Shown here piece after piece: positions 13,024 through 60,328 of a stretch of 64,000 nucleotides of DNA; the stretch's first letter is position 1; every line of letters begins with the position of its first letter. Both the position numbers and the translations under genes were made by a program. Where the stretch lies: the IMG/VR virus record IMGVR_UViG_3300014205_000175, positions 1-64,000 of that record; one strand, written 5' to 3'. This stretch comes from a virus. Lineage: Duplodnaviria; Caudoviricetes. A model generated the notes under the pieces. The model saw nothing but the letters and a program-made list of their open reading frames with translations. It did no database searches and had not been told where the DNA came from.

Positions 13024-13569
13024 ATGATCGTCGATTTCACTGTTCACCTGCCGGAAACCGTTCAGTTGCTGAGTGATAATAAAGAGTTTACTTTTTACCC
13101 GACCGGCGAGCGTTTCTTCATCGGGTCTCAGCACGGCGGCGGCGATATATTCGGCATGCCCTATCGGTTTTACGTGCAGGACACACCGGAAGCGCGAAAG
13201 TTTTTGCAGGCTAACGGATTCACAGTCAGTGACAACGACCTAGGGAACTTTTTTAATCTGGGTCAATTTGCAATGTTTCCGCAGCCGTCGATGTATCCAC
13301 GACAGATGCAGCAACCGATGCACTCTAGTGGAGTGGCTGCTAAGGATAGTGAAACCGTGCGTGATGTCGTTTATTCTAAATGCACCCCGTCCAATCCTGC
13401 CCCGGTGTACGTGTGGCTGGTAGAATCTGTAGAAATGTTGCGTGAAGCTCACGAGTACCTTAACCGGACACGCATAAATGGGACGTTCATGGCGCCCAAC
13501 ACCTATCGTCAGATGCTCGAACTCATTTTGACCGTGTCTCAGCTAGACTCGACATCGCGTTGGGTCTAG
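13024..13569 (+). CDS. Degenerate nucleotidyltransferase-like protein, paralogue 1
   Basis: FYPTGERFF...PYRFYVQDTPEARKFLQANGF...VY....VYVWLV shared with three neighbouring ORFs. Confidence 0.6.
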   Translation: MIVDFTVHLPETVQLLSDNKEFTFYPTGERFFIGSQHGGGDIFGMPYRFYVQDTPEARKFLQANGFTVSDNDLGNFFNLGQFAMFPQPSMYPRQMQQPMHSSGVAAKDSETVRDVVYSKCTPSNPAPVYVWLVESVEMLREAHEYLNRTRINGTFMAPNTYRQMLELILTVSQLDSTSRWV

Positions 13570-13604
13570 CTTGTGTACAATTTTCTTTTACACGGAGGTC
13601 TCTC

Positions 13605-14060
13605 ATGATCCATAATCTCTCAGCGCACGACACCGTCCAACTGCCGGCAGCAGTCACGCTACTAGCCAATCAGGCGGAGATGGATTTTTATCTCACCGGC
13701 ACGCGTTATTTCGCTGGTCATCGCATCTCTCGACCGCCCCAATCGATTCGCTACGAGTTCTTCGCCACGGATACTCCGGCAGTGCGCGCGTTTCTCGTAG
13801 CGAACGGGTTTTCTCAGGTTACGCATCGCTACTCGCATCTGACGAAAATCCCGCCTGATGTGGTTTATCGCTGTGAAGGCAACGAAGTCGCTACGCGCGG
13901 CTGCACGGTGTTCACGGATGTATGGCTAGTCGATTCGGTCGAGGCTATGGTAGCGGCGCACGAATACGTCTACGAAGCTTTCCCTGGTGGGCTGCCTGGT
14001 GACTACTGGTACATGTCGGTGAAAGCTGCCCTCATCGTCCTTGAAAATGAAAAAGAGTAG
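13605..14060 (+). CDS. Degenerate nucleotidyltransferase-like protein, paralogue 2
   Basis: GGAGG RBS. FYLTGTRYF...RYEFFATDTPAVRAFLVANGF...VYR...TDVWLV. Confidence 0.6.
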   Translation: MIHNLSAHDTVQLPAAVTLLANQAEMDFYLTGTRYFAGHRISRPPQSIRYEFFATDTPAVRAFLVANGFSQVTHRYSHLTKIPPDVVYRCEGNEVATRGCTVFTDVWLVDSVEAMVAAHEYVYEAFPGGLPGDYWYMSVKAALIVLENEKE

Positions 14061-14106
14061 AAAAGAAAGCATCGTCCAAATTTAGACTACTACTTTGGAG
14101 CAGAAC

Positions 14107-14442
14107 ATGATCCACGATCTCAAGACCGATGCCAGTGCCTCACTGGTAGAGACCATCGTTATGATGGCTACTACGCCGTTTTTTAACTTCTATCCAACGG
14201 GTAAGCGTTTTTTCATGGGTGATAAACGCATCACCCCGCTAGCTGCATCTGAGCCGTATGGATTTTATACTCGGGACATGCCGGAGACGCGTGAGTTTCT
14301 TACCTCGATAGGGTTCTCGCTCGACACGACCGACGAGCCCATAAAGCGTGTACGCGGGTTTAGCTCGATCTATCGAAAAGCCTGCCGCGATTTTCCTTCT
14401 TGCATCGAGGTGCAGCTCGTGGCACTGCACGACAGTAAATGA
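14107..14442 (+). CDS. Degenerate nucleotidyltransferase-like protein, paralogue 3 (short)
   Basis: FYPTGKRFF...PYGFYTRDMPETREFLTSIGF...IYRK...IEVQLV. Lacks the C-terminal helices of the other copies. Confidence 0.6.
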   Translation: MIHDLKTDASASLVETIVMMATTPFFNFYPTGKRFFMGDKRITPLAASEPYGFYTRDMPETREFLTSIGFSLDTTDEPIKRVRGFSSIYRKACRDFPSCIEVQLVALHDSK

Positions 14443-14801
14443 CCAGCGAGCATAAGCTGATTGTCGCCGGAGGTCGGGACTTCGAAGACTACGCGCTACT
14501 CACGGAGAAGATCTTCAAGTACGTTAACACCGAACTCAACAATCAGACGCTAGCGATCGTGAGCGGCATGGCCAGAGGCGCTGATAGCTTGGCAGTGCGT
14601 TTCGCTCGTGAGCAGCGCGTTCGACTCTACGAGTATCCGGCTGACTGGAATCTCGGGCGCGGCGCTGGGTTCATTCGTAACAAAGCCATGGGAGATTTTG
14701 CCGATGGACTATTAGCGTTTTGGTCCGGTAGTAACGGCACGCGCAACATGATTGAATACATGTTGAAACTCAACAAGCCAGTACGCATAGTGCGATACTA
14801 G
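14439..14801 (+). CDS. SLOG-superfamily YspA/DUF2493-like protein
   Basis: IVAGGRDF.DY, IVSGMARGAD, YPADW..G..AG..RN..M, S.GT..M. Confidence 0.85.
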   Translation: MTSEHKLIVAGGRDFEDYALLTEKIFKYVNTELNNQTLAIVSGMARGADSLAVRFAREQRVRLYEYPADWNLGRGAGFIRNKAMGDFADGLLAFWSGSNGTRNMIEYMLKLNKPVRIVRY

Positions 14802-14822
14802 GAATCGTTCTCGGAGCCGTGA

Positions 14823-15182
14823 ATGAAGGAATACAAACTGATCATAACGGGCGATCGTAACTTCACGAACTACTCGTTACTGAGTCAGAAGATCTTCGAT
14901 TACATTAATAACGATGCTTGTGGTTATGCTGTTAGTATCGTTAGCGGTATGGCTAAAGGTGCTGATCTATTAGCGGCGCGTTTTGCCCGCCAGTATCGGG
15001 TTCATCTGTACGAGTTTCCTACCGATTGGAGTCAAGGTCCTGGAGCGGGGTATGCTCGTAATCGAACTATGGCGGATTTTGCTGATGCTGCATTAGTGTT
15101 CGGTTCCCGTGATAATGCTACCCGGCATCTGATCGAATATATGGAAAGTCTCGGTAAATCCGTAAGCGTGGTGCGTTACTAA
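14823..15182 (+). CDS. SLOG-superfamily YspA/DUF2493-like protein, tandem paralogue
   Basis: IITGDRNF.NY, IVSGMAKGAD, FPTDW..G..AG..RN..M. Confidence 0.85.
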   Translation: MKEYKLIITGDRNFTNYSLLSQKIFDYINNDACGYAVSIVSGMAKGADLLAARFARQYRVHLYEFPTDWSQGPGAGYARNRTMADFADAALVFGSRDNATRHLIEYMESLGKSVSVVRY

Positions 15183-15200
15183 CTAACCAAGGAGCATGCA

Positions 15201-15389
15201 GTGTACCGTGTAGACATTTACATCGACAGCAGGGGCAAAGCCCGTCGCGTCAAAAACGTCGCTAACAATATTCCGACGTTCGAAGAAGCCGACCGGCTGT
15301 GCTCGCAGAAAAATCGCGATCTCGGTATCGACCCTGATAAGATGAAAGTGCGACCGGGGCAGAAGTACTGCATGTTCGACAGCCGTTAA
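15201..15389 (+). CDS. Small hypothetical protein
   Basis: AAGGAG precedes the GTG start. In line with the operon. Confidence 0.6.
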   Translation: MYRVDIYIDSRGKARRVKNVANNIPTFEEADRLCSQKNRDLGIDPDKMKVRPGQKYCMFDSR

Positions 15390-15410
15390 TCACTTCAAGA
15401 AAGGGTTGTC

Positions 15411-15602
15411 ATGACGCCGTTGCAACAAGAGGTAGTGAATCGTGCTCGCGAGCGACTTAAAGATAAAACGTGGTTTCGCGGGCTGTGTCTCGATGGTTTG
15501 TGGGAAGATGAGGACATCCAGCGCGACGGAGTAGAAGCAGCGGCTACCGCACTAGCGATGGAAACCGCGATGTGGGACGCTCCCGATTTCTTTAACCCCT
15601 AA
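15411..15602 (+). CDS. Small hypothetical protein
   Basis: AAGGG RBS. Followed by a hairpin at 15625-15651. Confidence 0.6.
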   Translation: MTPLQQEVVNRARERLKDKTWFRGLCLDGLWEDEDIQRDGVEAAATALAMETAMWDAPDFFNP

Positions 15603-15679
15603 GCGTTCGAGTTAAATTCAGATCCCGTCCTTCCTACCCACGGAAGGGCGGTCATTACTCAATGGGAGATTTATTTGTT

Positions 15680-16144
15680 ATGATACCTCATTTCGACAAC
15701 TACCACCACATGCGTTTTCCAGTTAACGTCCGGCCTCTCATAGATACTCAGGCATTCGAGTTTCATCTCACCGGAGAGAGGTTCTTGGTCTATAAGGCTA
15801 AATGGGCGCTGGGGACTGACTACCAGTTTTTCACCGAGTGTAATCCTGAAGTTATCAAGTTTCTCAAGGCACAAGGGTTCGTGAAGATTAAAACTACCTG
15901 TCGGCGCGATCCGTTGTTGCTAAAAGTCTATCGTAAGTCATGCCACGATCTATTTTTTTATGGGTATGTGCCGTACGTCGAAGTACAGCTTGTGAAGATG
16001 CCCGAGCTAAAACTAAAAACACAACATAACCTACGACTCATCTATCCTCGCGGGTTGCCTAAAGACATCGATACACAGTATGAAATTTGGCATCTAGCCA
16101 CCCAGCTCACTGCTCTGAGTAGCCTGAATGCCGTGGTTAGTTAA
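15680..16144 (+). CDS. Degenerate nucleotidyltransferase-like protein, paralogue 4
   Basis: FHLTGERF...TDYQFFTECNPEVIKFLKAQGF...VYRK...VEVQLV. Likely start MIPHF. Confidence 0.6.
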   Translation: MIPHFDNYHHMRFPVNVRPLIDTQAFEFHLTGERFLVYKAKWALGTDYQFFTECNPEVIKFLKAQGFVKIKTTCRRDPLLLKVYRKSCHDLFFYGYVPYVEVQLVKMPELKLKTQHNLRLIYPRGLPKDIDTQYEIWHLATQLTALSSLNAVVS

Positions 16145-24633: not shown

Positions 24634-26751
24634 TTAGTATTCCGAAAAATATCGGGTAAGTGTGGGTGTTGTAACAGCTAAGGTAGGTGTCGTAATTTGT
24701 AATGAACTGGTGCCCGAAGTACCTGAAGGCGTAACACTGGATTCTGTTGGTGTTGAACCCGATCCTCCACCAGTATCCCATGACAGTCCTGTCATATTGA
24801 TACCAGTAAGGGCACCTAACGCTATATCGCCTGAAGACGGTATGCAACTTATGAGGGCACCTGAGACACCGTCTGCTTGAGTTCCTTGATCTCCTACCGC
24901 ATAGACGGCAATACCATTTGGCGATGCTGCAACTCCAGTGAAAGAGTTCTCTTCATCATCAGCAATATCGCCTAAATTATAATTATAATCCCATAATGAG
25001 TCACCAGTACTGTCCCAACAAGTAACATATGTTTTATTGTATGTCTGAGGGTCATACTGCCCTACTATATAGATAGCTGCACCATCAGGCGATATTGCAA
25101 CACCCCATAGATAATCATTGCCATTAGAATGACCTATCGAGCGTTGCCATGCTCTAGTACCGCTAGTATCCCATTTGGTGACATAGCCATTAATATCACT
25201 GCCTCCTAATCTATTGACATGTCCAACTGCGTATATCGCCGCACCATCTGGCGATATGGCAACATCGTAAAATCTACTGGTGTTACCTGATGCGGTTCGC
25301 GACCATATAAGACTGCCAGTATTACCCCACCGCGCAATATAGTAACCACCAGGAGGATAAATTCCTACTGTATAAATGGCAGCACCATCCGGCGACACTG
25401 CAACATTTCTCCACTCATTAGCGGTATTGGCATATGCTATCGAGCGTTGCCATATGAGGGCACCGGAAGCATCCCAGCGAGTGGTAAATGCTGCACCATA
25501 ACCTAATGTTTGAGAAGACTGATATCCTACTGCATAGATAGCTGTGTTGTCCGGTGATATATCGACCCCATAAAAGCGATCATCTCCAGTACCTCCTATC
25601 GCGCGCTGCCACACAAGACTACCGTCAGTATTCCAGCGAGTGATATAAGCATCACAACTACCGGCGGTCTGAGAATACTGACGTCCTACCGCATATATTG
25701 CTACACCGTCAGACGAAATAACGATATCCTCGAAATAGCTTGTGCTACTTCCATCTAGCGAACGCTGCCATACTAGAACACCGTTAATATCCCAACGAGT
25801 AATATATGCATCTGGTTGATCTGCGGTTTGAGAGGACTGGTACCCTACTGCATAGATAGCATTACCGTCAGGTGACACAGCGACTTTTGTAAAACAATCG
25901 GTAGAAGCGCTGTCCGCATTAGCTACCCAACCTTGAAATTCATAAGTGGTGAAAGCTACTGTTGCAGACCATGCCGACCATCCATATATCGCGCTATGAT
26001 GTCGAACACGCGCGTAATATTGGTTGTTTTCTGCTAAATAAGCACTAGGTAACCAATTCGTAAAGTTTGCCGTCCCTTCGTAATACTGGGTGAGCGTAGC
26101 AAAGTCAGGTGTCGCAGAGATCTCCCAACGTACCTGGTCTTGCGTTTGAATATCCCCATGGAATTGAAATGCCGATGAAATAAACTCAGGTTTCATAGAC
26201 ACCCCAGTAGCGCCATTAATCGGAGTGAGGATACTTGGTGTGGCGATCGAAGCTGCAATCACCGTGACGGCAAAGGCCTTGCCGTTGACAGTAAACCCCC
26301 CTGCGCCATTAGCGGCAGGCGTGTAAGTGATGACTTCACCGTTACGTACTACGTTACCATTAGTAGCTGTAATAGTGTACGTAGTGAAACTATCGTACGT
26401 AGTAAGGGTATAGGATGTCGCCTGACCGCGAGTGGTAGTTGTAGGACCTTCGATTGTAACGCCGCTATTGACGACGGTATCGGGCAACGATGTCAGCGGT
26501 AGCTTACCCGTAGCATCCAGCAACGCGAGACCGTTAGCGCCCGTTTTAAACAGACTGAGTGCTATTTTGCTATTAGCATCCAGTCCTACAATGCCGTTGG
26601 CGATGTTAATCGTGTTGAGCCGAAGTAGGTTGAGGTTATCCGAAGCAGCTACCGCGGTGATGGCACCAGTACCACCGAGCACCACCGGCACGACGTCATC
26701 TACACCGACGTCATTATTGTAGCCGGCAGGGTTAAACATGTAACGAGGCAT
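24634..26751 (-). CDS. Tail fibre / receptor-binding protein with beta-propeller
   Basis: Start MPRYMF after AGGAG. N-terminal half parallels 861..2942. Seven VA.SPDG.AIY.VG...W...G.L.WQR blades. Confidence 0.75.
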   Translation of the reverse strand: MPRYMFNPAGYNNDVGVDDVVPVVLGGTGAITAVAASDNLNLLRLNTINIANGIVGLDANSKIALSLFKTGANGLALLDATGKLPLTSLPDTVVNSGVTIEGPTTTTRGQATSYTLTTYDSFTTYTITATNGNVVRNGEVITYTPAANGAGGFTVNGKAFAVTVIAASIATPSILTPINGATGVSMKPEFISSAFQFHGDIQTQDQVRWEISATPDFATLTQYYEGTANFTNWLPSAYLAENNQYYARVRHHSAIYGWSAWSATVAFTTYEFQGWVANADSASTDCFTKVAVSPDGNAIYAVGYQSSQTADQPDAYITRWDINGVLVWQRSLDGSSTSYFEDIVISSDGVAIYAVGRQYSQTAGSCDAYITRWNTDGSLVWQRAIGGTGDDRFYGVDISPDNTAIYAVGYQSSQTLGYGAAFTTRWDASGALIWQRSIAYANTANEWRNVAVSPDGAAIYTVGIYPPGGYYIARWGNTGSLIWSRTASGNTSRFYDVAISPDGAAIYAVGHVNRLGGSDINGYVTKWDTSGTRAWQRSIGHSNGNDYLWGVAISPDGAAIYIVGQYDPQTYNKTYVTCWDSTGDSLWDYNYNLGDIADDEENSFTGVAASPNGIAVYAVGDQGTQADGVSGALISCIPSSGDIALGALTGINMTGLSWDTGGGSGSTPTESSVTPSGTSGTSSLQITTPTLAVTTPTLTRYFSEY

Positions 26752-48066: not shown

Positions 48067-50256
48067 CTATCTGTTAGGACCCGTAACAACATCGGAACCA
48101 CGTGAGCCCAGTTCCAATGCATTCATGCCTACTCCTAGTGGTGTATAAGACAATACCCCGGAAGTGGCCGAATCATGAATCGCCGAAGCCCAGTATGCCG
48201 ATGATGAATATTTACTTGCCTGCGTATACATGCGTGCTGCTTGCAAACGTGCTTTCGGTAGCGGGTAGATCTGGTTGTAGATATCTAAGCCTGCTACTAC
48301 CGCCATATAGTCCATTAGGATATTATCCTCATCCATCATCGGTAGAGTGTTACCGGCTGCCTGACTGATGAACTCCCAGATCGTACCGGTACCCATCGGC
48401 ATATGCATGATTGACGATAGATCGACAACGCTAAAAGTCACATCAACTGCCATCGGTTGACCCTTACGGTTAAAGGTCAGATTACTCGTACCGCGTGTGA
48501 TGCTAAGGGACTCAACCATGCCGAGCTGGATCTGACAGCGACCACGGTCGTAGACCTGACATAAGAATGGTGCACCATAAGTCTGTTTACCGGTAGAACG
48601 CGGTAACACCGATGCTAGTAACATGCAAAACGGGATATAGATGTTTTGTAGCTGCGAAAATGGATGCCCGTAGGGAGCTACGAGCTGAATAGTGTAGTTG
48701 GCACGCGGTAGGGTGGCAGTAGAGCTTTGCCACGTCTTAGGGATGTCGTAGTAACTACCGGCGAGTAAGGCGTGTAATCCATCGCTAAACCCTAGCGTCA
48801 AGCCACTTGCGGCACCTGCGACTATGTCTTTGATGCCAGTTACCCCGGCTTCCAAAGCATTGGCGATCAGACCGTCACCCAAATTACCACCGGCAAATGT
48901 AAAACTCATCTGACGCGCAGTACTCGATGACTGGTTGAGCTTTTGTGATAAATCGCTTTCCATCACTGAGTTACTAAAAGACTCTGAAGCCGCGCCGGTA
49001 CTGTCTACTTTAAATACCGCGAATGCCCCACCTTGTGAGAGCTCAGCATCAAGATAGGTAATGAGTTCTTCAGCCCACGATGGATTGGGGTTACTGCCAT
49101 CTTCTTGTGTGCCAGCGCGATGTTGTCCGGTGACAGGATCGATTTTTGGTGTTACTGAGGTGAGGGTGCGATCTGAATCATTCGGGATATTGAACCACGA
49201 CTGCAATTTACTGACTTCAGCGAGGATCGAGATCAGTGTGTGGTTGCCTTCGGGAGTGACGAAAATAGTGGTTTTACCAGTAGCGCCCTCGTTACGCACG
49301 TAACCCTCAAATGAACTGGGATCTCCGCTATTGAGCTGTTCATACTCTTTGAGAAACACCTGGTTAGCCATACGCTGTGCTTTGAGTGCTACGGCATAGA
49401 TATCGACACGTCCTTGTTCATTGAATATTTCAGGAAACCGTGCATGCATGTCATTGATAAAACCAGCATCGAAATTAAACGGATCGCCGATACGTTGTGT
49501 ACTTTGATCGCCGCCAGGGAACTTGGGCATCAAGCCTCGGTTGATTACAAGTGAGTTGACCAACATGTCGACGGCTGCCCAGTATAGAAACATCGTCGGT
49601 TTCATAGTGTAGAACTTACTTGTAGCGCGCGAGAAAAATTTACTGATGATGCGAGCACCGACTACCGCTGTAGTTAAGACCGGAAATGCCACTGCAGTAA
49701 ACACCGTACCGACGATTTGCCCGGCAGTATAAGCCCAGCCCTTAGCTTGACCAGTGTTGACAAGACTTGCCATACCAGGATTAAAAGCGTTGGTGAAAAA
49801 TGAGAACAGGGAATTATACTGCGGTACACCGAATCGTAGATATACGGTCTGAGCATTATCATCGATCGCTTCGCTATAGTAACGCCCCATACCGTGATTG
49901 CCCGTAGTGGCTCCGACGGTGACATCGGCGCGTCCTGCATAACGTCCTTTGATACGTACATCAGCATACCGGTTAAACTGTGGTCTGGCGTTTACTGCCG
50001 TGTTACCACCCATACGGGTATCAGTGAACTTGCGTGCAGCGCTAGACCAGTAACGGTTGGCGATGTCGTCTTGTACGTCAGAGGCGATTTGCTCGTTCTC
50101 TTCAGTGTGTGCAAGAGATGAATCTGACATCAAAAATGACATCTTAGCCCAGCTATTGTCAAGGATAGTGAAACTATCGCCAGTTGATGACTGTGTATTC
50201 ACACCTACTAGTGGACCTGCTGCGGTTTCGATTAGACGAGGATCTGCTGTAACCAT
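48067..50256 (-). CDS. Tail/baseplate hub-like virion protein
   Basis: KFTDT.MGGN..N..PQF..YAD, GMGRYYSEAIDDN, DIP..WQSS, L..PYG.P, S.SITRG. Follows the tape-measure-like gene. Confidence 0.7.
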   Translation of the reverse strand: MVTADPRLIETAAGPLVGVNTQSSTGDSFTILDNSWAKMSFLMSDSSLAHTEENEQIASDVQDDIANRYWSSAARKFTDTRMGGNTAVNARPQFNRYADVRIKGRYAGRADVTVGATTGNHGMGRYYSEAIDDNAQTVYLRFGVPQYNSLFSFFTNAFNPGMASLVNTGQAKGWAYTAGQIVGTVFTAVAFPVLTTAVVGARIISKFFSRATSKFYTMKPTMFLYWAAVDMLVNSLVINRGLMPKFPGGDQSTQRIGDPFNFDAGFINDMHARFPEIFNEQGRVDIYAVALKAQRMANQVFLKEYEQLNSGDPSSFEGYVRNEGATGKTTIFVTPEGNHTLISILAEVSKLQSWFNIPNDSDRTLTSVTPKIDPVTGQHRAGTQEDGSNPNPSWAEELITYLDAELSQGGAFAVFKVDSTGAASESFSNSVMESDLSQKLNQSSSTARQMSFTFAGGNLGDGLIANALEAGVTGIKDIVAGAASGLTLGFSDGLHALLAGSYYDIPKTWQSSTATLPRANYTIQLVAPYGHPFSQLQNIYIPFCMLLASVLPRSTGKQTYGAPFLCQVYDRGRCQIQLGMVESLSITRGTSNLTFNRKGQPMAVDVTFSVVDLSSIMHMPMGTGTIWEFISQAAGNTLPMMDEDNILMDYMAVVAGLDIYNQIYPLPKARLQAARMYTQASKYSSSAYWASAIHDSATSGVLSYTPLGVGMNALELGSRGSDVVTGPNR

Positions 50257-50335: not shown

Positions 50336-53300
50336 TTAAATCACTTTACGATTGAGGCTGATCGGTAATTTATCCATCTGCGATGTTTTCAGTCGTGATG
50401 CCGGTGCCTGTGATGCTGGGGCAGTTTCACTAGGCATGGCTGATTTTAGCGCGGTAACGATCTCAGCGAATTTCTCGGCACTGATGTTACCCGAAATAGT
50501 CGTTAGCACTTGCAGCATCTGTTCTTGCAGGCTTACTGATTTACCCATTAGAGTTTCCACTCCGCTGAGTTGCTTGAGCATATCGGTGGCATTATAACGA
50601 CTACCGTTATCGATAGGAGTAACATTACTAGCAGTACGTGGTGCAGTAGGTACATTAAATGACGGTTGAGCGGCGGTTACCGCTGCCGGCTGACTACTAT
50701 TAGCCATCGCTGTACCGATAGCTGCTAGCGGACTACTAGCGCCAGTGGTACTGGTATCTTTGACTGGATTCGCTACCGCGACAGCATCAGAAGAAGCTGA
50801 TATAGGAGGTAGTCCGCTATCATTAGCCGCAGGAGCACCGATGTTAAACTCATTAGCTTTACTGGTAACCTTACCATCCAGATGAGCTAGTAGTTCTTCG
50901 ATTGTGCGCGGCTGATTATTGTTATAGAAAATTGGTGTATTGCTACGTGCTGCTTTGGGTAGCAACTCAGCAGCGATAGTGTCTGGACTGGCCGAGAGAA
51001 GCTTTTTCGCTCCCGATGGTCCTAGCATATGCGCTGCGTATAGTTCGACTGCCGATGCGTTAGGAGCTACATCGGATATTAAACGGGCATTAGCTTTCAT
51101 ATATTCAGCTGCCATCAGAGCATTAGCAACTGGATCGTTTTTCGACGTATTAGGTCCTAAGCCATATTGCCGACCGTGTTTACCGAGCATGTATTGCCAG
51201 GTCTTATCGACAAACTGAAATAGTCCGCCTGCAGAGCTTTGACTGCTGCGTGCAGTAGCTTTGAAGCCTGATTCGATTGCAGCGAACGTTTGCAGTGTAG
51301 TAGGATCGACTCCGGCGATCTGAGCGACTTGCTGCACCATGCGTTTGATCGCATCGGGGGATTTATAATTACCCGTAGATAGATCACGAATCGCATCCAT
51401 CGTACCGGGCTGAGCACCGAAACCAGCTTTACCGGCGACATCATTGATACCGTATTGGCCACGAATGTTAGCACTGGAGCTCACTGTAGCTTCACCTATG
51501 CTCACGATCCTGTCATCAACACCCATCGTGCGAGCAGTATTACCAGCCGTGCGTGCTGCGCCACGTGACGAGTTCAACCCACCATTACCGATGTCACGCG
51601 CCATACCTGCTGCGGCAGCACCGATGCTGGAAGTAGGCGTACTCATAGCAGGCTTAGCATCATTGGCTGCTGAAGGATACTTACCACCGGCAGCTAACGC
51701 TGGAGATGAGGCAGGTTTACCAAATGCATCAGGATCAAAGCCTTTGGTAGTGTAACTAACCTGCTCGGTTTTAGCTGGCGGTGCAACCTTACCTTTGCTG
51801 CCTTCCGGTGTCACCCCTTCGCTACTCAGAGCTATTTGAGTACTTGAAGGCGTGGGTTTCGAAGTGCTGCCGCTAGCGAGTATTTGCTGGGCAACTGCAT
51901 CATTACGTCGATATTTAACCGCACCGGGTTGTGCGCCATATCCTCCACCACCTCGATGCGCTGAAGCGAGTACTAGCTCACTGGCTAGTTGCGGGTTTTG
52001 ACGAACTGCGGTGAGTTTACCTTGAATGCCAGCTGGTTCGACATGCCAAGGTTCACCACCCACAGGTCGAGTAAAGCCGTATTTTTTCATTAATCCGAGC
52101 TGATCGAGTGCTGCAGCATCGGTGCTATTGATATCTACCGCGAGACCCGATTCATGTAGCGATCGTCCCGGCGGGGCAGCTTTACTAGGATTGGCGGCAT
52201 GCAGTGCAGCTTGTTTCTCATACGAGCGATAACCAGAGTTGACTTGAATCTTTTTCCCTGACATTTCGCCGTACTCTTGTGCCATCGCTTTGAAGCGCTG
52301 TAGCATCGTCGGATTGATTCCCTGTAGCTCTACACCACTACCAAGTTTTATGTAATTACCACCGCTCTCTCCACTACAGAGCTCGGGTGAAATAACACTC
52401 GTATTCTTTTGGAAAGCTTCATTATTAAGAATAGCTGGCTGAGATGCTTGAGCCAGTGGAGTTTTACTTGTACCGAGGATCTTATCGGCTGAAGATTGTA
52501 CCGAGGGTTGTGCGCTACCAGCTACTAATGAATCAGGCTCTTTAGAGGGAGCTACAGATGTTATTTCACCCACAGGCTTCGATGCAGCAGTAGCGATCGT
52601 AGTGGGTCGTTTCTGATATCTGGCTGGAGGCAAAGTCGCACGGGCGCGCGTTACGGCATCCAGATAATCGGCACGGCTGGCAGAGAGCAAATCTACTCCG
52701 GCAAACGGGCTTTCTTTGGTTTGATAAATATCATCAGGGACATCCAGAAGTGAGACGTACTTCTCGAAATTCTCGCTTTTGAGATTCGAGATCGACATTA
52801 GCGTCAAACGCGGATTGGTTGCCCACAAGGCATTACGGTTTTTTACATATGTCGGTATAAAGCGCTTGGACAACCATACAGCTAGTGTCTGGGCTTTAGC
52901 TAGACCAGTAGGAGTCTCGGGATCGACATCAAAGATCTCATAGACCACCTGCATTTCTATACGGTTATCCGAGACCGTAAAACCGTCGTTTTTAAAGACT
53001 TCGACTTTTTTCTGTATATAGTCTTCTAGTTTGAAGATCTGTTGATAGCGATCGTTCTCATCGCCATAGGACGGCAACCCATACTGGGCTAGGCGAATAT
53101 AGTCCAAGCGGCTAACATTTCGATCTTTGAAATACCGATATAATGCATAGACCGGATTAGCTTTGAGAGCTGTGATACCCATGCTTTTAAATAGATCTGC
53201 TGCCCGTCCGAGTACCGAAGAAGCTACGGCAGACTGGATCGTGCTAGGTAGGCCTGATTTTTCCACGGATGGCTTACCTCCTTCATCATTCTTAGAGGTA

Positions 53301-56300
53301 GGGTCAGACTTACTTACAGCAGCCGCAGCACCAGAGATTATTGCGGCTTTATTCATATCAGCTAGCGTCTTGGGTTCTTTAGCGGCTTTATCGAGCTTAT
53401 CGAGACCGAGGTCTTTCTTCGCCGCGACGATAGCAGCTTCGACATCTGACTTACCGGCTAAGAACTGCAGATAATCTTTGATCGGGCTATTGGTGACATT
53501 GTAATACGGAATGTCAACTTTGATCGCATCGATATAAATCTTGGCTTCAGCGAGTTTGAGTTTATCGATATCAGCGATAGCTAGTTTCGAGTTGGCTTTG
53601 AAAAGCGCCGTGCGATGCAGGTTGTATACATGGACGAAGCGTCCCAGAAACCATTCTTGTAGCGCTGCGATATGCTCTTCATCAGCTTCCGGGTCTAGAC
53701 CGAAGATCTCCAAGATCACATTGCCGTCGATCTTGCTCTGGTCGATCATCGCTTGTCCTTGCCGAATGACAGTAGCGTTGTCGCTGACATACTGTTCGAG
53801 CTTCAGTAGGTAATGGTAATACTCGCTATCAGCGGGCGGGATACCGTACTGTGCGAGACGAATAGCGGTGAGTTTAGAGGCACTGTTGCGAGTGAAAAAC
53901 TGGTAGCCTTTATATAACCCATAACCGACAGCACCGACGGCAGCAGCGCCAGCTATGAACGGCACCAGAGGGGAAGCAAGCATACCAGCACCCATTGCAC
54001 CGAATTGACCGATGCCAACAGCACCCAATCCAAGCCTGCCGACAGTAGTTACTGCCGACGCAGCGCTGGCGATACCACGACCAGCGAATAAAGCCCCTTT
54101 GCCGGCCATTTGCAGGCCTTTGACGGGGTTTAATGCGTAGTTAGCTACTGTGCCTACCCCACGGGCTACAGCGCCGACACCACGCCTTAAAATACCTGGC
54201 CTTCTAGCAGCCCCTCGACCTAACCCACGGCGTCCGCGTCGTCGACCCACTGCATCTCCCGCGCCACCTAGCATATCACCAATACTACCGCTAAGTGTAT
54301 CCATAACGCCACCGAACATATCTTTCATCGAGGCGATCTTATCTATCATCATATCGATAACATTACCACCACGATATCGTGCTTCTGATTTATTTTTGGC
54401 GTGCTCCTCAGCGCTTTTATGACGACGCTCCTCGGAAGCATTTTTCATTTTATCCAGCTTCTCTAACCAGCTGCCATCACGCCTGCCACTACCATCGACA
54501 TCATTAAAGTGCGTCAATCCACCGACACGATCTTTGACTGCCTTAGTAACGGTGTCATAACTAGTGCGAGCTTTATTGACAAGCTGATCTTTTTGCTCTT
54601 TGATACGTTCAGTCACCGATGGTGTGTCTGTCTCATCTTTGACCTTCGGAGGTTTAAGTTTGGACCATAGACCACTAATGCCAGAAACCATGGTATCGAT
54701 AACATTGTCACCGCGATACCATGGTTCGGGTTTGTCTTTGGCATGCTCCTCAGCGCTTTTACGACGGCGTTCTGCGGCAGCATTTTTCATCTTATCGAGC
54801 TTCTCTAACCAGCTGCCATCACGCCGGCCACTACCATCGACATCGTTAAAGTGCGTCAGGTCACGAATACGATCTTTGACGGTCGTGGCAGCAGTGTCGA
54901 AACGGGTACGGATTGTCGGCACTGGTTGGTCTGGTGTATCTGTGGTGACTGGAGTTTTCAGTTTGGACCGTAGGCCAGTAACACCCGAAGCTATAGTGCC
55001 GATAACATTATCGGCATGATGTTTATTAGCTGTGGTCAAGTCTTTTACGCGATCTCGTAATACGGTGCCGGTTTGTTTGACTCGGCCAAATAGTTTATCT
55101 GCACTGGCTGCAGTAGTAGATTTATTGATACCTTTCTCATCTTTAAAGCTACGTAGTCGCATCTTACCAGGACGACCAAGGAGATTTTTGATTGAGATAT
55201 CGCGTATGTCTAAGAGTACGTTATAGATATAACGATTATAGCCGCCCACACTACTGATGCCGTCACTGACTTTACTAGCAGCAGCTTGACCGAAAGCTTG
55301 GGTTTTACCCATCACCATACTGCCGAACTTGGCTACACGAGCGTAAGCGCTTTGGGCGCGTTCTTTGATAAAACGCATCGCCTTAGTCCTGATAGCTTCG
55401 ATCTCTACTCCTTGACTATTGATCAAACCGCGAGTGATATCTTCAGTAGTGAGTACAATATGTCCGTCAGTAGTAGCAACAGCACCCGTGATGAGTCCTG
55501 GGCGAGTGATCGCTTTACCACTGACCGTATCGATGTAACCGCCTAGACGCATGAGTTGAGCAGTCAGACGTGGTTCATTTTCCCCACGTACGTAAATATC
55601 GGTGGGTTCATCGAATAATTCAGCTACTGTCGTGCCGGCTTTCTTAACATTAGTCCACATGTCCTGCAAAGCTTGCGGGATCTTATTACGCACCACATCG
55701 GACGTGGTAGTGTAAATATCGCCAGCTAGATTCCACGCACCACTGATGAGTTTACCCAGACCGTCAGTAACTCTACCTTTGTTCTTTTTAATCTGCTCGC
55801 TGGCTAGATCGAACGTAGGTTTAGCGATACGGTCTTTAGTGAAGGTATAAGCACTCGTTGTGTTGTCTTGCAGTTTATTAAAAGCACCGATGCCACGTTT
55901 TTTGATGCCTGACAATAGTCGCGTAGCACGATCGCCAATACCGAGAGTAGCACTGGTAGGCACCTCTTGCAGAATCGCTGGAGAAGGCTGACTATCGGCA
56001 TTATTCCAACCGTCTTTGATATCTGACCATCCGCGTTTGAAACGACCGCCAGCCAGACGTGCAAATACTCCTAGACTTTGAAGTTTATCGCCAGCTTTAA
56101 AAGTAATACCGTTAAATAACTTACCATCCATACCGGCGATATGACTATCGATAGAAGCTGTATGGGTGCGGATCTCGCCTAGCACATCGAGCATCGCATC
56201 ACCGGTTTTGTTCGTAGCGATGCGAGTGTCGACTTTGGTGTTAAGATCTTGCACTGCCTGCATCGTCAAACCATTCATCGTTACCAGATCGATGCTCGTG

Positions 56301-58645
56301 CCACCTGGAGCAGCACCGTTACCGAAGCGCGACTGCACCTCCTGCGCCATCGGTCCTACATGTGCACCGCCATCACCACGACCTGCCTTATACTGCCACT
56401 GATAGTTTTTAACCGCAGCTAGCCTATCCAGTACGTTAGGTGCCGGACTAATGTTTTGCTTGGCGTGAATATCGGAGGTTGCATGATAAGGTTTGATATC
56501 GCGCTTGGCATGAATGTCTGATGTAACTGTACCAGGATCGGGCGGTTCGGGGTTTTTCCCGCGTGCATCTAAGAGCCTCTCGACATAGCTCGTCTTATCG
56601 AGTTCAGTGACGTTGTTTTTGGTTTTGGTGATTCCCATGTCACCCAACAAATCACCCATGCCAGCGTCGGTATATTGCTGTGCGATGCCTTGTTGAGCAG
56701 GGATGGTATTTTGAATATCACGACCGAACTTATCGACAGCGGATTTATACGTGGTGTCTCCATCACCGTCCATCATTTCACTAGCCCTACTCGCAATATC
56801 TTCAAGACGACTAGAGACACGTGAGCGATGGGCTTGATCGATATAGCGTAGGAACTTTTGATTAGTTAGAGTTTTGAATGTTAACGTATTCCCGTCCATC
56901 ATCCACCGCAGCAGGGCTTTTTTAAGCGCTGCGATCTGAGGTTCGGTAAGTATGCGATCGAGTTTAAACGTTTTAACAAAGCGTGCAAGCTCATCGTGGA
57001 GTTTGCCGTTACTCTCAGGATTGATGAGTTTTTTAGTGATGCTTTCTTTGATCGCAGATTCGGTATTAAATCTCCCTGACTCAAAATCAAAGCGTTGCAC
57101 TTCAACGCCATCGACTGCAGCCAATCCACTAGCGAAAGCAGGATCGTGTTCAACCCACATCCGTAGTAGTTTGGTCGAGCGAGTATTTTCCTGGAGGATT
57201 TTACCTAGGTAGCCAGGGATAATATCGGTGATGCTGCGATAGACGCGGTTATCAAAAATCGCATCGGGTTGCGTGAGATTACTCATGCCACCAGCGCCGA
57301 CTAGTTTCATATCGACATCTTGCTTGGCAAATGGTTCCAACAAGCTTCGAATAAAACTCTTGGCCGAATTACCATCGGCATCATTGAAGTAGTCGCTGTG
57401 ATAAGCGTCTTGCGCGAGACCTTGCGGGTTCATCGCAGCACCGACCCACTTCTTACCGAACTTATCAAGACGGCCGTTTTCTGGTGCGATGGTACGACGT
57501 AGCCGTGCACCGAGTTTAGCGGCAGCTTTGTTGACCGGGTTCTGCAGCAGCAGTGAAGCACCGATATTGCCAGCGGTGTTAGCGCCGGACATATCTCCCA
57601 TGTCCAAACCGTCACCGAGATCTTGCTGCTGCATCGAGAGTTGATCGATCGCATCGAGCGACATGTCCAAGCCCATCTGGATCGAGCTCGACATCTCTCG
57701 AATCTGATCGACCATGCGTTTTTTGATCTTCTCAAACCCCTTACCGATAACACTCTCGCTATTAAAGAGCTTACCTTGGATATTATTAAAAAGCTTATTA
57801 CGCGCGATATCTTTAAAGCGCTCAGTGTTCTGAATCTTCGTAAACTCAGGCAGTCCTGTATTTTTTACGACTGCGTCGTTTTGCGTCTTGAATATCTCGA
57901 AATATTCTTTGGATTTGGTCAGTAGCTCAGCATTAACAAAGTAGCTGCGGTACTGAAGCTCCAGGGATTTTTTCTGGTAGGCCTGTGTAACCTGCGTCTC
58001 ATAGTTACTGAGCGCCGCGAGGTTATGATCGATGCTGGTTAGTAAACCTTGTTGAGAAGTAAATCTTTTGGCTTCTACCTGTCGATCCAAATCTCCTTTG
58101 GTATCGTCACGAGCTTGTTGACGTGCCTGTAGGTCGATTTGGGTATTGAACACTTCAGCGAGTGAGCCGGCGATCGTCTGTTCTTCTTGTTGTTGCTTAG
58201 AAGGTCCTGACGGTGCATCGTAAATACCAAGAGCATCTTTGATTTTACTCGCGAGACGGCGACTACGCGAATTCTCGTCCGAGCTCATCTTCTCTAGCAC
58301 TTTGGTAAAGCGCTTGGCGGTCGGTTTGATTTCGCGTGCTGCCTCCCGATAGAGACTGGAGATATGCCCGGATACTTCCTCTACGCGCGAGCCGATGACT
58401 TGGTACTCTTTCGGCAAAGCTTCTTGCGCGAAAGTACGCAGCGTATTTTCCGACAACACGGTGCTTTTCGCACCACTGATCGCGCCCTTGAATGCACTGG
58501 TGACGGCACTGCGTTTTTTCGGATTGACATCACTACGAGCGCGAATGTCATTGACCCGTACGTCAGAGTCGAGTGTATCGAAATTTAGATCTTCATCAAA
58601 ATCGAAATCTAGGTCAAATGCCTCGTCTTGCTTCTTTTTAGCCAT
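50336..58645 (-). CDS. Tape-measure-like tail protein with S74-like, M15 peptidase and lytic transglycosylase domains (phiKZ gp181-like)
   Basis: 2769 aa. YQKKSLELQYR and ..IIPGYL.KI in the N-terminal part, SGYRS..Q...PGRS.HE.GLAVDI..EPWH (M15), AIESGF...SSAGGLFQF...TW...Y.AH.LG (transglycosylase). Divergent from the beta' gene. Confidence 0.85.
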   Translation of the reverse strand: MAKKKQDEAFDLDFDFDEDLNFDTLDSDVRVNDIRARSDVNPKKRSAVTSAFKGAISGAKSTVLSENTLRTFAQEALPKEYQVIGSRVEEVSGHISSLYREAAREIKPTAKRFTKVLEKMSSDENSRSRRLASKIKDALGIYDAPSGPSKQQQEEQTIAGSLAEVFNTQIDLQARQQARDDTKGDLDRQVEAKRFTSQQGLLTSIDHNLAALSNYETQVTQAYQKKSLELQYRSYFVNAELLTKSKEYFEIFKTQNDAVVKNTGLPEFTKIQNTERFKDIARNKLFNNIQGKLFNSESVIGKGFEKIKKRMVDQIREMSSSIQMGLDMSLDAIDQLSMQQQDLGDGLDMGDMSGANTAGNIGASLLLQNPVNKAAAKLGARLRRTIAPENGRLDKFGKKWVGAAMNPQGLAQDAYHSDYFNDADGNSAKSFIRSLLEPFAKQDVDMKLVGAGGMSNLTQPDAIFDNRVYRSITDIIPGYLGKILQENTRSTKLLRMWVEHDPAFASGLAAVDGVEVQRFDFESGRFNTESAIKESITKKLINPESNGKLHDELARFVKTFKLDRILTEPQIAALKKALLRWMMDGNTLTFKTLTNQKFLRYIDQAHRSRVSSRLEDIASRASEMMDGDGDTTYKSAVDKFGRDIQNTIPAQQGIAQQYTDAGMGDLLGDMGITKTKNNVTELDKTSYVERLLDARGKNPEPPDPGTVTSDIHAKRDIKPYHATSDIHAKQNISPAPNVLDRLAAVKNYQWQYKAGRGDGGAHVGPMAQEVQSRFGNGAAPGGTSIDLVTMNGLTMQAVQDLNTKVDTRIATNKTGDAMLDVLGEIRTHTASIDSHIAGMDGKLFNGITFKAGDKLQSLGVFARLAGGRFKRGWSDIKDGWNNADSQPSPAILQEVPTSATLGIGDRATRLLSGIKKRGIGAFNKLQDNTTSAYTFTKDRIAKPTFDLASEQIKKNKGRVTDGLGKLISGAWNLAGDIYTTTSDVVRNKIPQALQDMWTNVKKAGTTVAELFDEPTDIYVRGENEPRLTAQLMRLGGYIDTVSGKAITRPGLITGAVATTDGHIVLTTEDITRGLINSQGVEIEAIRTKAMRFIKERAQSAYARVAKFGSMVMGKTQAFGQAAASKVSDGISSVGGYNRYIYNVLLDIRDISIKNLLGRPGKMRLRSFKDEKGINKSTTAASADKLFGRVKQTGTVLRDRVKDLTTANKHHADNVIGTIASGVTGLRSKLKTPVTTDTPDQPVPTIRTRFDTAATTVKDRIRDLTHFNDVDGSGRRDGSWLEKLDKMKNAAAERRRKSAEEHAKDKPEPWYRGDNVIDTMVSGISGLWSKLKPPKVKDETDTPSVTERIKEQKDQLVNKARTSYDTVTKAVKDRVGGLTHFNDVDGSGRRDGSWLEKLDKMKNASEERRHKSAEEHAKNKSEARYRGGNVIDMMIDKIASMKDMFGGVMDTLSGSIGDMLGGAGDAVGRRRGRRGLGRGAARRPGILRRGVGAVARGVGTVANYALNPVKGLQMAGKGALFAGRGIASAASAVTTVGRLGLGAVGIGQFGAMGAGMLASPLVPFIAGAAAVGAVGYGLYKGYQFFTRNSASKLTAIRLAQYGIPPADSEYYHYLLKLEQYVSDNATVIRQGQAMIDQSKIDGNVILEIFGLDPEADEEHIAALQEWFLGRFVHVYNLHRTALFKANSKLAIADIDKLKLAEAKIYIDAIKVDIPYYNVTNSPIKDYLQFLAGKSDVEAAIVAAKKDLGLDKLDKAAKEPKTLADMNKAAIISGAAAAVSKSDPTSKNDEGGKPSVEKSGLPSTIQSAVASSVLGRAADLFKSMGITALKANPVYALYRYFKDRNVSRLDYIRLAQYGLPSYGDENDRYQQIFKLEDYIQKKVEVFKNDGFTVSDNRIEMQVVYEIFDVDPETPTGLAKAQTLAVWLSKRFIPTYVKNRNALWATNPRLTLMSISNLKSENFEKYVSLLDVPDDIYQTKESPFAGVDLLSASRADYLDAVTRARATLPPARYQKRPTTIATAASKPVGEITSVAPSKEPDSLVAGSAQPSVQSSADKILGTSKTPLAQASQPAILNNEAFQKNTSVISPELCSGESGGNYIKLGSGVELQGINPTMLQRFKAMAQEYGEMSGKKIQVNSGYRSYEKQAALHAANPSKAAPPGRSLHESGLAVDINSTDAAALDQLGLMKKYGFTRPVGGEPWHVEPAGIQGKLTAVRQNPQLASELVLASAHRGGGGYGAQPGAVKYRRNDAVAQQILASGSTSKPTPSSTQIALSSEGVTPEGSKGKVAPPAKTEQVSYTTKGFDPDAFGKPASSPALAAGGKYPSAANDAKPAMSTPTSSIGAAAAGMARDIGNGGLNSSRGAARTAGNTARTMGVDDRIVSIGEATVSSSANIRGQYGINDVAGKAGFGAQPGTMDAIRDLSTGNYKSPDAIKRMVQQVAQIAGVDPTTLQTFAAIESGFKATARSSQSSAGGLFQFVDKTWQYMLGKHGRQYGLGPNTSKNDPVANALMAAEYMKANARLISDVAPNASAVELYAAHMLGPSGAKKLLSASPDTIAAELLPKAARSNTPIFYNNNQPRTIEELLAHLDGKVTSKANEFNIGAPAANDSGLPPISASSDAVAVANPVKDTSTTGASSPLAAIGTAMANSSQPAAVTAAQPSFNVPTAPRTASNVTPIDNGSRYNATDMLKQLSGVETLMGKSVSLQEQMLQVLTTISGNISAEKFAEIVTALKSAMPSETAPASQAPASRLKTSQMDKLPISLNRKVI
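54355..55060 (-). repeat. Internal tandem duplication of ~100-120 aa
   Basis: Two near-identical LTHFNDVDGSGRRDGSWLEKLDKMKNA..ERR.KSAEEHAK.K.E..YRG.NVID blocks plus a partial third. Confidence 0.85.
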
Positions 58646-58711: not shown

Positions 58712-60328
58712 ATGTCAGCAGCAGACCTACCGTTTAATCTTGATTTACTTACTCCTACACTCGATCAACTAAAAAGCCTGCGTCCGATTCGCTCGCTCGA
58801 TATCTTCGAGAGCTCTACTAAAAACTTCCATCCCGAGGGTTTATTCAGTGTCGAGACCTTTGGTAAAGTAGGTACTGAAAACCGTAACCGCAGTTTTGGT
58901 TATATCGATATCATCGCTCCGATTCTGCATCCGGTAATCTACAAAGCATTAGCGGAACTGAAAGAACTCTATGGCGACATCATGAATCAGACCAAATACG
59001 CGCTATGGAATGAGAAGCTCAAGGATTTTGAAGTTGCCAGTGCGATAGATGGTGAGACAGGTATGGCGTTTTTCCTCCAGCACTATAAAGAGATCAAATT
59101 CCTCGATCGCAAAAGTGTCAAACGTTCCTTTAACATCGAACTGATAGAAAAATTCAAAGACCGCTCGCTCATCCAGTACATACTAGTGCTGCCGGCAGGA
59201 CTGCGTGATTATGAGATTGGCGATTCGGGTAAACCCGAAGAAGGCGAAGTTAACACGTTCTATCGTTCACTACTGTCACTCGCTAACCTCATCACTCCTG
59301 CGGTATTTAAAAACGATCCACGCGGCGTAGACTCTACACGCCATCGATTGCAGCTGACGATGATTGAGATCTACAACTACTACCGTGGACTAATCGAAGG
59401 TAAATCAAAATTCATCCAAAGCAAATGGGCTGCGCGTAAGATTTTTAACAGCACACGTAACGTCGCCTCCACGATCATCAACGAAGCGACTACCGCAGAT
59501 GACATCAACATCATCAAAGCCAATGAGACCGCGGTAGGACTGCATCAATACGCGCGCTCTACTGCACCGATGTCGCTACACCATCTGCGTGAGACGTTCC
59601 TGCACAAAGTTTTCACTGGTGCCAATACTCCGGCAATCTTGGTCAACGCTAAAACGTTGAAAAAAGAGATGGTTAATATCAGTGCCGATCACTACGACGA
59701 GTGGATGAGTTCCGAAGGGCTTGATAACGTCATTGCACGTTTTGGTGAGCGAGAGCTGCGTCACGAACCGCTGATGCTCGATAAACACTATCTAGGACTG
59801 ATCTATAAGGGTCCAGATATGACGTATCGGTTCTTGCAAGATATCGACGATCTGCCTGAAGCCGAGATGGCCAAATACGTCACACCAATCACCTTCTGTG
59901 AGCTACTGTATCTGTCGCTCTATAAAGATTCGCATACGGTGCCAGGATTTGTTACGCGCTATCCTATCACAGGCTACGGCAGTATCTACCCGTCCCTCAG
60001 TCACTTGAAAACCACGATGCCGTTTGAAGTACGTACCGAGCTCGATGACAACTGGCAGCCGACGGATTCAATCGCAAAGAACTTTCCTATCGCCGGTGCG
60101 AGTTTCTTTGATACCCTGGCACCAAATTTATGCCATTTGGGTAGATTAGGATTGGATTTTGACGGGGACGTTATTTCGTATATTTGCGTGGTAAGTGAAG
60201 AAGCTAAAGCCGAAGTGCATAGGAAGATGGCCTCAGCGAGCTACTATGTCGATGCTAATGGTAAGATGTATTTTAGTGCTGGCACTGAAACCATCGGCTA
60301 CGTGCTAGGCTACTTGACGGGTTCGTAA
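58712..60328 (+). CDS. rpoC: Virion RNA polymerase beta'-like catalytic subunit (phiKZ gp180-like)
   Basis: GLFS.E.FG, VLPAGLRD, GK....KW..R, TRYP and the catalytic LDFDGD. Confidence 0.9.
   Translation: MSAADLPFNLDLLTPTLDQLKSLRPIRSLDIFESSTKNFHPEGLFSVETFGKVGTENRNRSFGYIDIIAPILHPVIYKALAELKELYGDIMNQTKYALWNEKLKDFEVASAIDGETGMAFFLQHYKEIKFLDRKSVKRSFNIELIEKFKDRSLIQYILVLPAGLRDYEIGDSGKPEEGEVNTFYRSLLSLANLITPAVFKNDPRGVDSTRHRLQLTMIEIYNYYRGLIEGKSKFIQSKWAARKIFNSTRNVASTIINEATTADDINIIKANETAVGLHQYARSTAPMSLHHLRETFLHKVFTGANTPAILVNAKTLKKEMVNISADHYDEWMSSEGLDNVIARFGERELRHEPLMLDKHYLGLIYKGPDMTYRFLQDIDDLPEAEMAKYVTPITFCELLYLSLYKDSHTVPGFVTRYPITGYGSIYPSLSHLKTTMPFEVRTELDDNWQPTDSIAKNFPIAGASFFDTLAPNLCHLGRLGLDFDGDVISYICVVSEEAKAEVHRKMASASYYVDANGKMYFSAGTETIGYVLGYLTGS

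Follow-up and report, generated by a model that had tools for sequence, protein, structure and literature searches.

A Peptidase S74/ICA domain is embedded in the putative tape-measure protein encoded in the window analysed here, a 64,000-nt stretch (positions 1 to 64,000) of a 203-kb virus record (IMGVR_UViG_3300014205_000175; Duplodnaviria, Caudoviricetes) that carries phiKZ-type genes. We think it probable that in many uncultured phiKZ-like phages this autoprotease, minus its usual β-helix client, has been recruited as a cleavage switch built into the tape measure.

The host gene is a 2769-aa ORF (P0001; 50336..58645, on the minus strand, as are all parts of the protein given below), which matches PHROG 3201 (E 1e-214). 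It is divergent from two RNA polymerase subunit genes, including a gp180-like virion RNA polymerase subunit gene (58712..60328, plus strand; PHROG 2986, E 1e-184), and lies upstream of a 729-aa gene (48067..50256, minus strand) assigned to the phiKZ gp182 position by synteny, without direct comparison; phiKZ gp182 is the baseplate spacer ring (PMC13250141). The gene order is that of phiKZ gp178/180-gp181-gp182. By its N-domain homology, its C-terminal lytic domain and its position between the virion RNA polymerase gene and gp182, the ORF is classed among the phiKZ gp181-like tape measures, here with VanY and SLT domains at the C-terminal end, the context already proposed in a preliminary description of this DNA. 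The ruler role is a label from the literature: the gp181 counterpart of SPN3US, gp239, has been named tape measure (PMC10052503), and phiKZ orf181 is essential and "likely" a tape measure (10.1101/2025.11.23.690004). Its oligomeric state has been given as a "putative trimer" (PMC5380687); in the 2026 phiKZ atlas, which has gp164 as the spike and gp182 as the spacer ring, no model of gp181 is given (PMC13250141).

The protein begins with a conserved N-domain (residues 1-691; 56573..58645), the predicted released fragment, which is defined by an N-end profile that stops at residue 691 and matches 12 cultured orthologues, and by an AlphaFold model with long helices at 47-340 followed by a compact helical domain at 370-693 (pLDDT 71.6 overall, 85-97 for residues 520-690). 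Fold searches with the model of the whole N-domain gave generic helical matches only. A Pro-rich linker (residues 694-707; 56525..56566; pLDDT <50 at 697-709) leads to a first copy of the Ser-Lys motif (residues 708-722, with S709 and K714; 56480..56524) and then to the S74/ICA domain (residues 723-810; 56216..56479), with its dyad S724/K729, W750/Y752, GPMAQ at 764-768, and a C-terminal helix. Farther on are the only strongly hydrophobic segment of the protein (residues 1550-1578; 53912..53998), possibly a membrane-contacting helix; a VanY/M15-type peptidase (residues 2111-2201; 52043..52315; Pfam 32.3 bits, cut-off 25) with H2164, D2171, and the EPWH motif intact, as read from the sequence; and a gp144-like soluble lytic transglycosylase (residues 2428-2595; 50861..51364; catalytic Glu about E2458). 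The tape-measure gene also contains a tandem duplication of about 114 residues (window 54347-55012; 342-nt period, 82% identity), a recent length change of the tape region. Across the 120 gp181 orthologues listed by an N-terminal search (P0001-P0120), the C-terminal lytic domains vary in Pfam assignment (SLT, VanY, M23, GH19, NlpC/P60, glucosaminidase) and are interchangeable.

The preliminary description had recognized an S74-type domain from residues quoted in the translation, and the PF13884 HMM does match, at residues 724-772 (41.6 bits, E 1.5e-10; the cut-off is 22 bits); no other S74 match was found in the 203-kb record. A single-sequence search of the PDB with residues 700-830 returned nothing, while a profile of the orthologous segments retrieved 8JOV, 3GUD, and MyRF 7DC3, with S724/K729 aligned to the first residues of 3GUD and to MyRF 587/592. 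The S724/K729 dyad is invariant in alignment A2. In the AlphaFold model the S74 core has pLDDT mostly >90, and the top four of 48,161 chains in a structure search with it were 7DC3, 3GW6, 4UW8, and 3GUD (Z 6.2-6.8, rmsd 1.7-3.4 over 74-81 residues), representing four solved ICA families: the MyRF ICA, endoNF, T5 pb1, and GA-1 gp12. The top four VIA matches and the best Foldseek matches were all ICA structures, well above unrelated ones; an ESM Atlas search gave a sub-0.9 S74 lead only. W750 and Y752, which are 95% and 97% conserved, align with MyRF Y615/Y617, a pair whose double mutation blocks cleavage (PMC8326128). Profile, dyad, and fold all identify residues 724-810 as Peptidase S74/ICA (PF13884). 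The domain sits about a quarter of the way along the protein, with some 1960 residues after its end near residue 810 (2046 counted from S724), as had been noted from the sequence. An intein was rejected as an explanation (no HINT/intein family in the Pfam scan, and the fold is that of an ICA), as was a tailspike chaperone, which would be C-terminal and follow a triple β-helix.

A homotrimer model of residues 640-840 scored 0.82 against 0.00 for the best control. Among solved homo-pairs 20 of 30 attain this mark, and among single chains 1 of 23; the score expresses likeness only, because similar trimers are already solved. Contact agreement between runs was at least 58%, and partner pLDDT at least 59. 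The confident interface begins at residue 717, takes in S724, and is dominated by the C-terminal helix; S709 and K714 fall in a low-confidence linker, in a model that is biased to copy 2 because its alignment registered single motifs there. A triple β-helix upstream of the S74 domain was looked for in the models and not found, the region consisting of helices, one hairpin, and then a disordered linker, though a short 7-residue stalk at 717-723 is compatible with the trimer model. The domain also lacks a long tentacle. The earlier label "autocleaving chaperone" is therefore only half retained: self-cleavage is supported by the family-wide conservation of the dyad (below), but the chaperone part is doubtful, with neither an upstream β-helix nor a tentacle.

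Among the 120 gp181 orthologues that the N-terminal search listed, 27 have an S74 domain, the window protein being one of them. When a profile search was run over 1.84 billion representatives, the number of proteins with both a gp181 N-domain and an S74 core rose to 122, again with the window protein. In all 122 the domain is in the same place, and an intact Ser-Asp-x3-Lys lies upstream of GPxAQ, in a set that is biased to intact motifs and under-samples dyad-less domains because the search profile itself contained the motif. The dyad Ser is at residue 692 in the median and is followed by a median of 1775 residues, and the first dyad begins a median of 9 residues past the end of the conserved N-domain; the linker there varies freely in length. 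Mean identity is 50% for the S74 core against 28% for the N-domain, and for one pair (P0008/P0009) dN is 0.058 and dS 1.23, values that indicate strong purifying selection on the core.

The domain is nevertheless dispensable in many lineages. It was not found after the N-domain in the gp181 orthologues of 13 cultured phages (phiKZ and 12 others), and a tblastn search with it matched no cultured jumbo phage. Its presence or absence requires at least 10 changes on a quick, unrooted N-domain tree. One orthologue (P0068), 45% identical to an S74-bearing sister, has a decayed remnant at about residues 650-725, with Ala for Ser and no Lys; dyad and core are eroded, and the C-terminal helix is still alignable. 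S74 distances track those of the host N-domains (Spearman 0.43, 0/500 permutations), and the tape-measure S74s fall on one side of a branch (support 75, not starred, hence weak) from 33 small S74 proteins, mostly Ala-rich virion proteins of the PHROG 8003 type. Since the distances correlate and the tape-measure S74s group together, vertical descent with losses fits, and a single gain followed by many losses is the simplest reading of these quick, unrooted trees. One deposited Ralstonia phage record, RsoM3USA, ends inside a gp181 orthologue (L003:8900-13346); opposite-strand ORFs are annotated there and the gene is missing.

The doubled dyad of the window protein, S709/K714 and S724/K729, is as first described, with codons at 56521-56519, 56506-56504, 56476-56474, and 56461-56459 respectively. 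What is duplicated is a 15-residue Ser-Asp-x3-Lys motif only; the domain itself is single. The copies differ synonymously (TCA/TCC, GAC/GAT, CAT/CAC), so the duplication is old, and an orthologue 43% identical (P0003) has the same 15-residue spacing. An assembly artefact is ruled out by the synonymous differences and the orthologues; no RNA data with the window sequence are listed, and of two DNA runs the first may come from the source sample while the second does not reach the motif region. Ser-Asp-x3-Lys alone arises in these proteins at a chance rate of 4e-4 per residue. On a profile from which Ser and Lys had been removed, copy 1 scores 32, where the 99.99% level of the background is 6.7.

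The same Ser- and Lys-free profile gives 24 clear copies upstream, spread over 22 of the 106 proteins, two of them with three motifs, at spacings of 10-89 residues. Another seven "copies" upstream had low scores, lacked Ser or Lys, and were discarded (5.4 are expected by chance). In twelve other proteins the only dyad lies 58-121 residues from GPxAQ, against the usual 42 or so, as if the near copy had been lost and the far one kept. The doubled state requires 13 changes on the tree, 10 of these forced by starred branches, and is found in five of the six members of the window's clade. One protein (P0030, residues 965-1060) has a second Ser-Asp-x3-Lys and a helix inside the S74 loop rather than upstream.

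From this family pattern we infer two things: each motif copy is competent to thread the trimer ring and cut, and selection acts against a copy that threads without cutting. It is possible instead, though rather unlikely, that only S724/K729 cuts, copy 1 being a slippage-type duplication that is slowly decaying or serves as a spacer. Such a reading would suit the confident trimer interface, which includes S724 and leaves S709/K714 outside, and the single dyad in most orthologues, among them the closest relative, the sister protein P0002. However, the interface comes from a model whose alignment set single motifs on copy 2, and copy 1 has retained its Ser, Asp, and Lys despite synonymous change and a saturated dS (P0001/P0003). 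In the wider family both Ser and Lys are kept in 24 of 24 extra copies even though the variable positions mostly differ between copies, and in doubled proteins it is copy 1 that usually lies at the ancestral 7-9 residue offset from the N-domain.

The mechanism that we propose draws on MyRF and endoNF for its chemistry. In MyRF, trimerization through the C-terminal helix activates the Ser-Lys dyad, which cuts before the Ser, and no contact with the upstream stalk is needed (PMC8326128). In the window protein, three chains would meet through the C-terminal helix, a motif would thread the trimer's ring, and its Ser, activated by the Lys, would cut the bond preceding itself, T723-S724. This would free an N-terminal part of about 80 kDa from a C-terminal part of about 2050 residues that begins with the S74 domain and bears the peptidase and transglycosylase. 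The upstream copy would offer an alternative register, threading in its turn and cutting T708-S709 with 15 residues looped out. A copy that could thread but lacked Ser or Lys would block the site, which we propose as the reason that every recognizable copy keeps both. Because the upstream region is helices and a Pro-rich linker, with no β-helix, the domain would have no usual client to chaperone, and the models point to an autoprotease triggered by trimerization more than to a chaperone of folding. The further step, that this uncultured phiKZ-like group matures its tape measure by a chaperone-free S74 at the N-domain boundary, with doubled and displaced motifs as functional registers, is offered tentatively.

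As to timing, which the preliminary description took to be assembly-triggered, we lean modestly toward cleavage during or just after tail assembly over cleavage at ejection. Tape measures of other phages are partly trimeric and cleaved (PMC10713586, PMC11972413). Cutting a ruler at about one quarter of its length has to be squared with length measurement. Delayed cleavage would avoid this difficulty: the domain would stay unfolded in the tail tube, so that the ruler is not cut before measuring, and trimerize after ejection, releasing the wall-lytic portion within the periplasm. In favor of this, ejection of tape measures is established (PMC10713586), and the nearest S74 relatives belong to small virion proteins rich in Ala (PHROG 8003, in 60-kb phages), not to fibers. 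Against it, expressed MyRF fragments cleave immediately on trimerizing (PMC8326128), and the Bacillus phage AgentSmith (MW749006; L013:9548-18936) has its gp181 orthologue divided between a coupled pair of genes of 1044 and 2081 aa, in which a TAGGAG Shine-Dalgarno ribosome-binding site overlaps the stop codon of the first. That first gene, annotated as a transglycosylase, matches the gp181 N-domain, whose end the N-end profile did not detect in AgentSmith; the split, at residue 1044, is some 250 residues beyond the N-domain end as read. Since the halves are two genes there, this one genome suggests that the two parts of a tape measure can work unlinked and need no link at the assembly stage. 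Shorter homologues were searched for further split N-halves; the one hit, a 1214-aa protein from a 4.8-kb contig, is no evidence of a split. On balance we regard delayed cleavage as unlikely.

A domain that does not cut at all, and acts only as a trimerization or registration module, appears improbable. The C-terminal helix does drive trimerization in MyRF (PMC8326128) and dominates the model interface here, and the internal chaperone cleavage of the X27 Tal protein is likewise unproven (PMC12403621). A purely structural role would not need the Ser and Lys that every one of the 122 domains and 24 extra copies keeps, however, and in the decayed P0068 remnant dyad and core are both eroded while the C-terminal helix remains recognizable. 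Very improbable is a selfish or neutral intein-like insertion, self-removing or merely tolerated in the freely variable linker, despite its patchy distribution at one site: S74 chemistry makes a single cut without re-ligation, there is no nuclease and there are no repeat ends, and both the correlation of S74 with N-domain distances and the (weakly supported) separation from the small S74 proteins speak against it.

Among known systems, the window S74 appears to work most like the MyRF ICA (7DC3; PMC8326128, PMC3742443), which gave the best Foldseek matches and the joint best Z. The two share an internal S74/ICA without a long tentacle, Ser and Lys five apart, the aromatic pair, a C-terminal helix, and retention of the domain on the C-terminal product; MyRF has an upstream β-helical stalk and one dyad in an ER transcription factor, whereas the window protein has helices and a linker upstream and a doubled motif in a phage tail protein. 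The chaperones of K1F endosialidase (3GW6), T5 pb1 (4UW8), and GA-1 gp12 (3GUD) share fold, dyad, and the G-x-x-A-Q motif, but are C-terminal, fold a triple β-helix (often via a tentacle), and are then discarded; the window domain has about 1960 residues after it and no β-helix client. With phiKZ gp181 and SPN3US gp239, a type of protein called tape measure (PMC10052503, 10.1101/2025.11.23.690004), the window protein shares gene order, N-domain, internal repeats, and an SLT domain, to which S74 and the VanY peptidase are added relative to phiKZ gp181. The Oenococcus phage X27 Tal (PMC12403621) is also a tail protein whose chaperone is not terminal and lacks a tentacle, and it too has two dyads. 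Those belong to two whole domains, each after β-helix and β-prism regions, in a fiber; the window protein, a tape measure, has a single domain and only the motif is doubled.

The closest S74 sequences (up to 48% identity) are in the small PHROG 8003 virion proteins (PBC5 gp19, PEp14, SopranoGao), which also join S74 to an Ala/Gly-rich passenger rather than a fiber, but are about 380-400 aa long with a C-terminal S74, in phages of about 60 kb. In five of these small proteins (PBC5 gp19, L005:8179-9381; P0166, P0168, P0185, and P0193), an intact terminal S74 directly follows a hydrophobic Gly-rich segment. Rich in Ala, Gly, and Gln, the PHROG 8003 proteins are a second non-fiber use of S74 and look like ejection proteins.

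Elsewhere in the window, a group of clustered small ORFs (13024-16144), paralogous to each other, has an FYPTG-like motif in common and includes two adjacent PHROG 289 paralogues (14439-15182). Two proteins of about 700 aa (861-2942 and 24634-26751), the second matching a virion structural PHROG, have a common N-terminal GGTGA motif and are probably paralogous fiber-like proteins.

The preliminary description had treated the internal position as unusual. The domain is indeed not C-terminal, but internality alone is not new, since MyRF (PMC8326128) and X27 Tal (PMC12403621) have internal ICA domains. In group 2 jumbo phages, S74 domains have been reported on fibers and spikes (Iyer et al., PMC7824862). 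A literature search, covering few subscription journals, found no published description of S74 in a tape measure or of a doubled scissile motif. What is new here is the tape-measure host and the recurrent duplication of the motif; the domain, its chemistry, and internal copies were already known.

Few of the proteases that cut myophage tape measures are known. Cleavage itself has been inferred from cryo-EM (PMC11972413). Here enzyme and site are both legible in the sequence, so that a single Ser-to-Ala change makes cleavage testable. In gp181, which is essential and has no model in the current phiKZ structure, the S74 domain shows where a functional boundary lies, and the natural series of single, double, triple, displaced, and decayed dyads tests the choice of scissile strand without a β-helix sensor. 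If the proposed reading is true, an S74 domain would be able to cleave a motif even where loops add up to about 80 residues to its tether, and a protease and its site would be named for the processing of a myophage tape measure.
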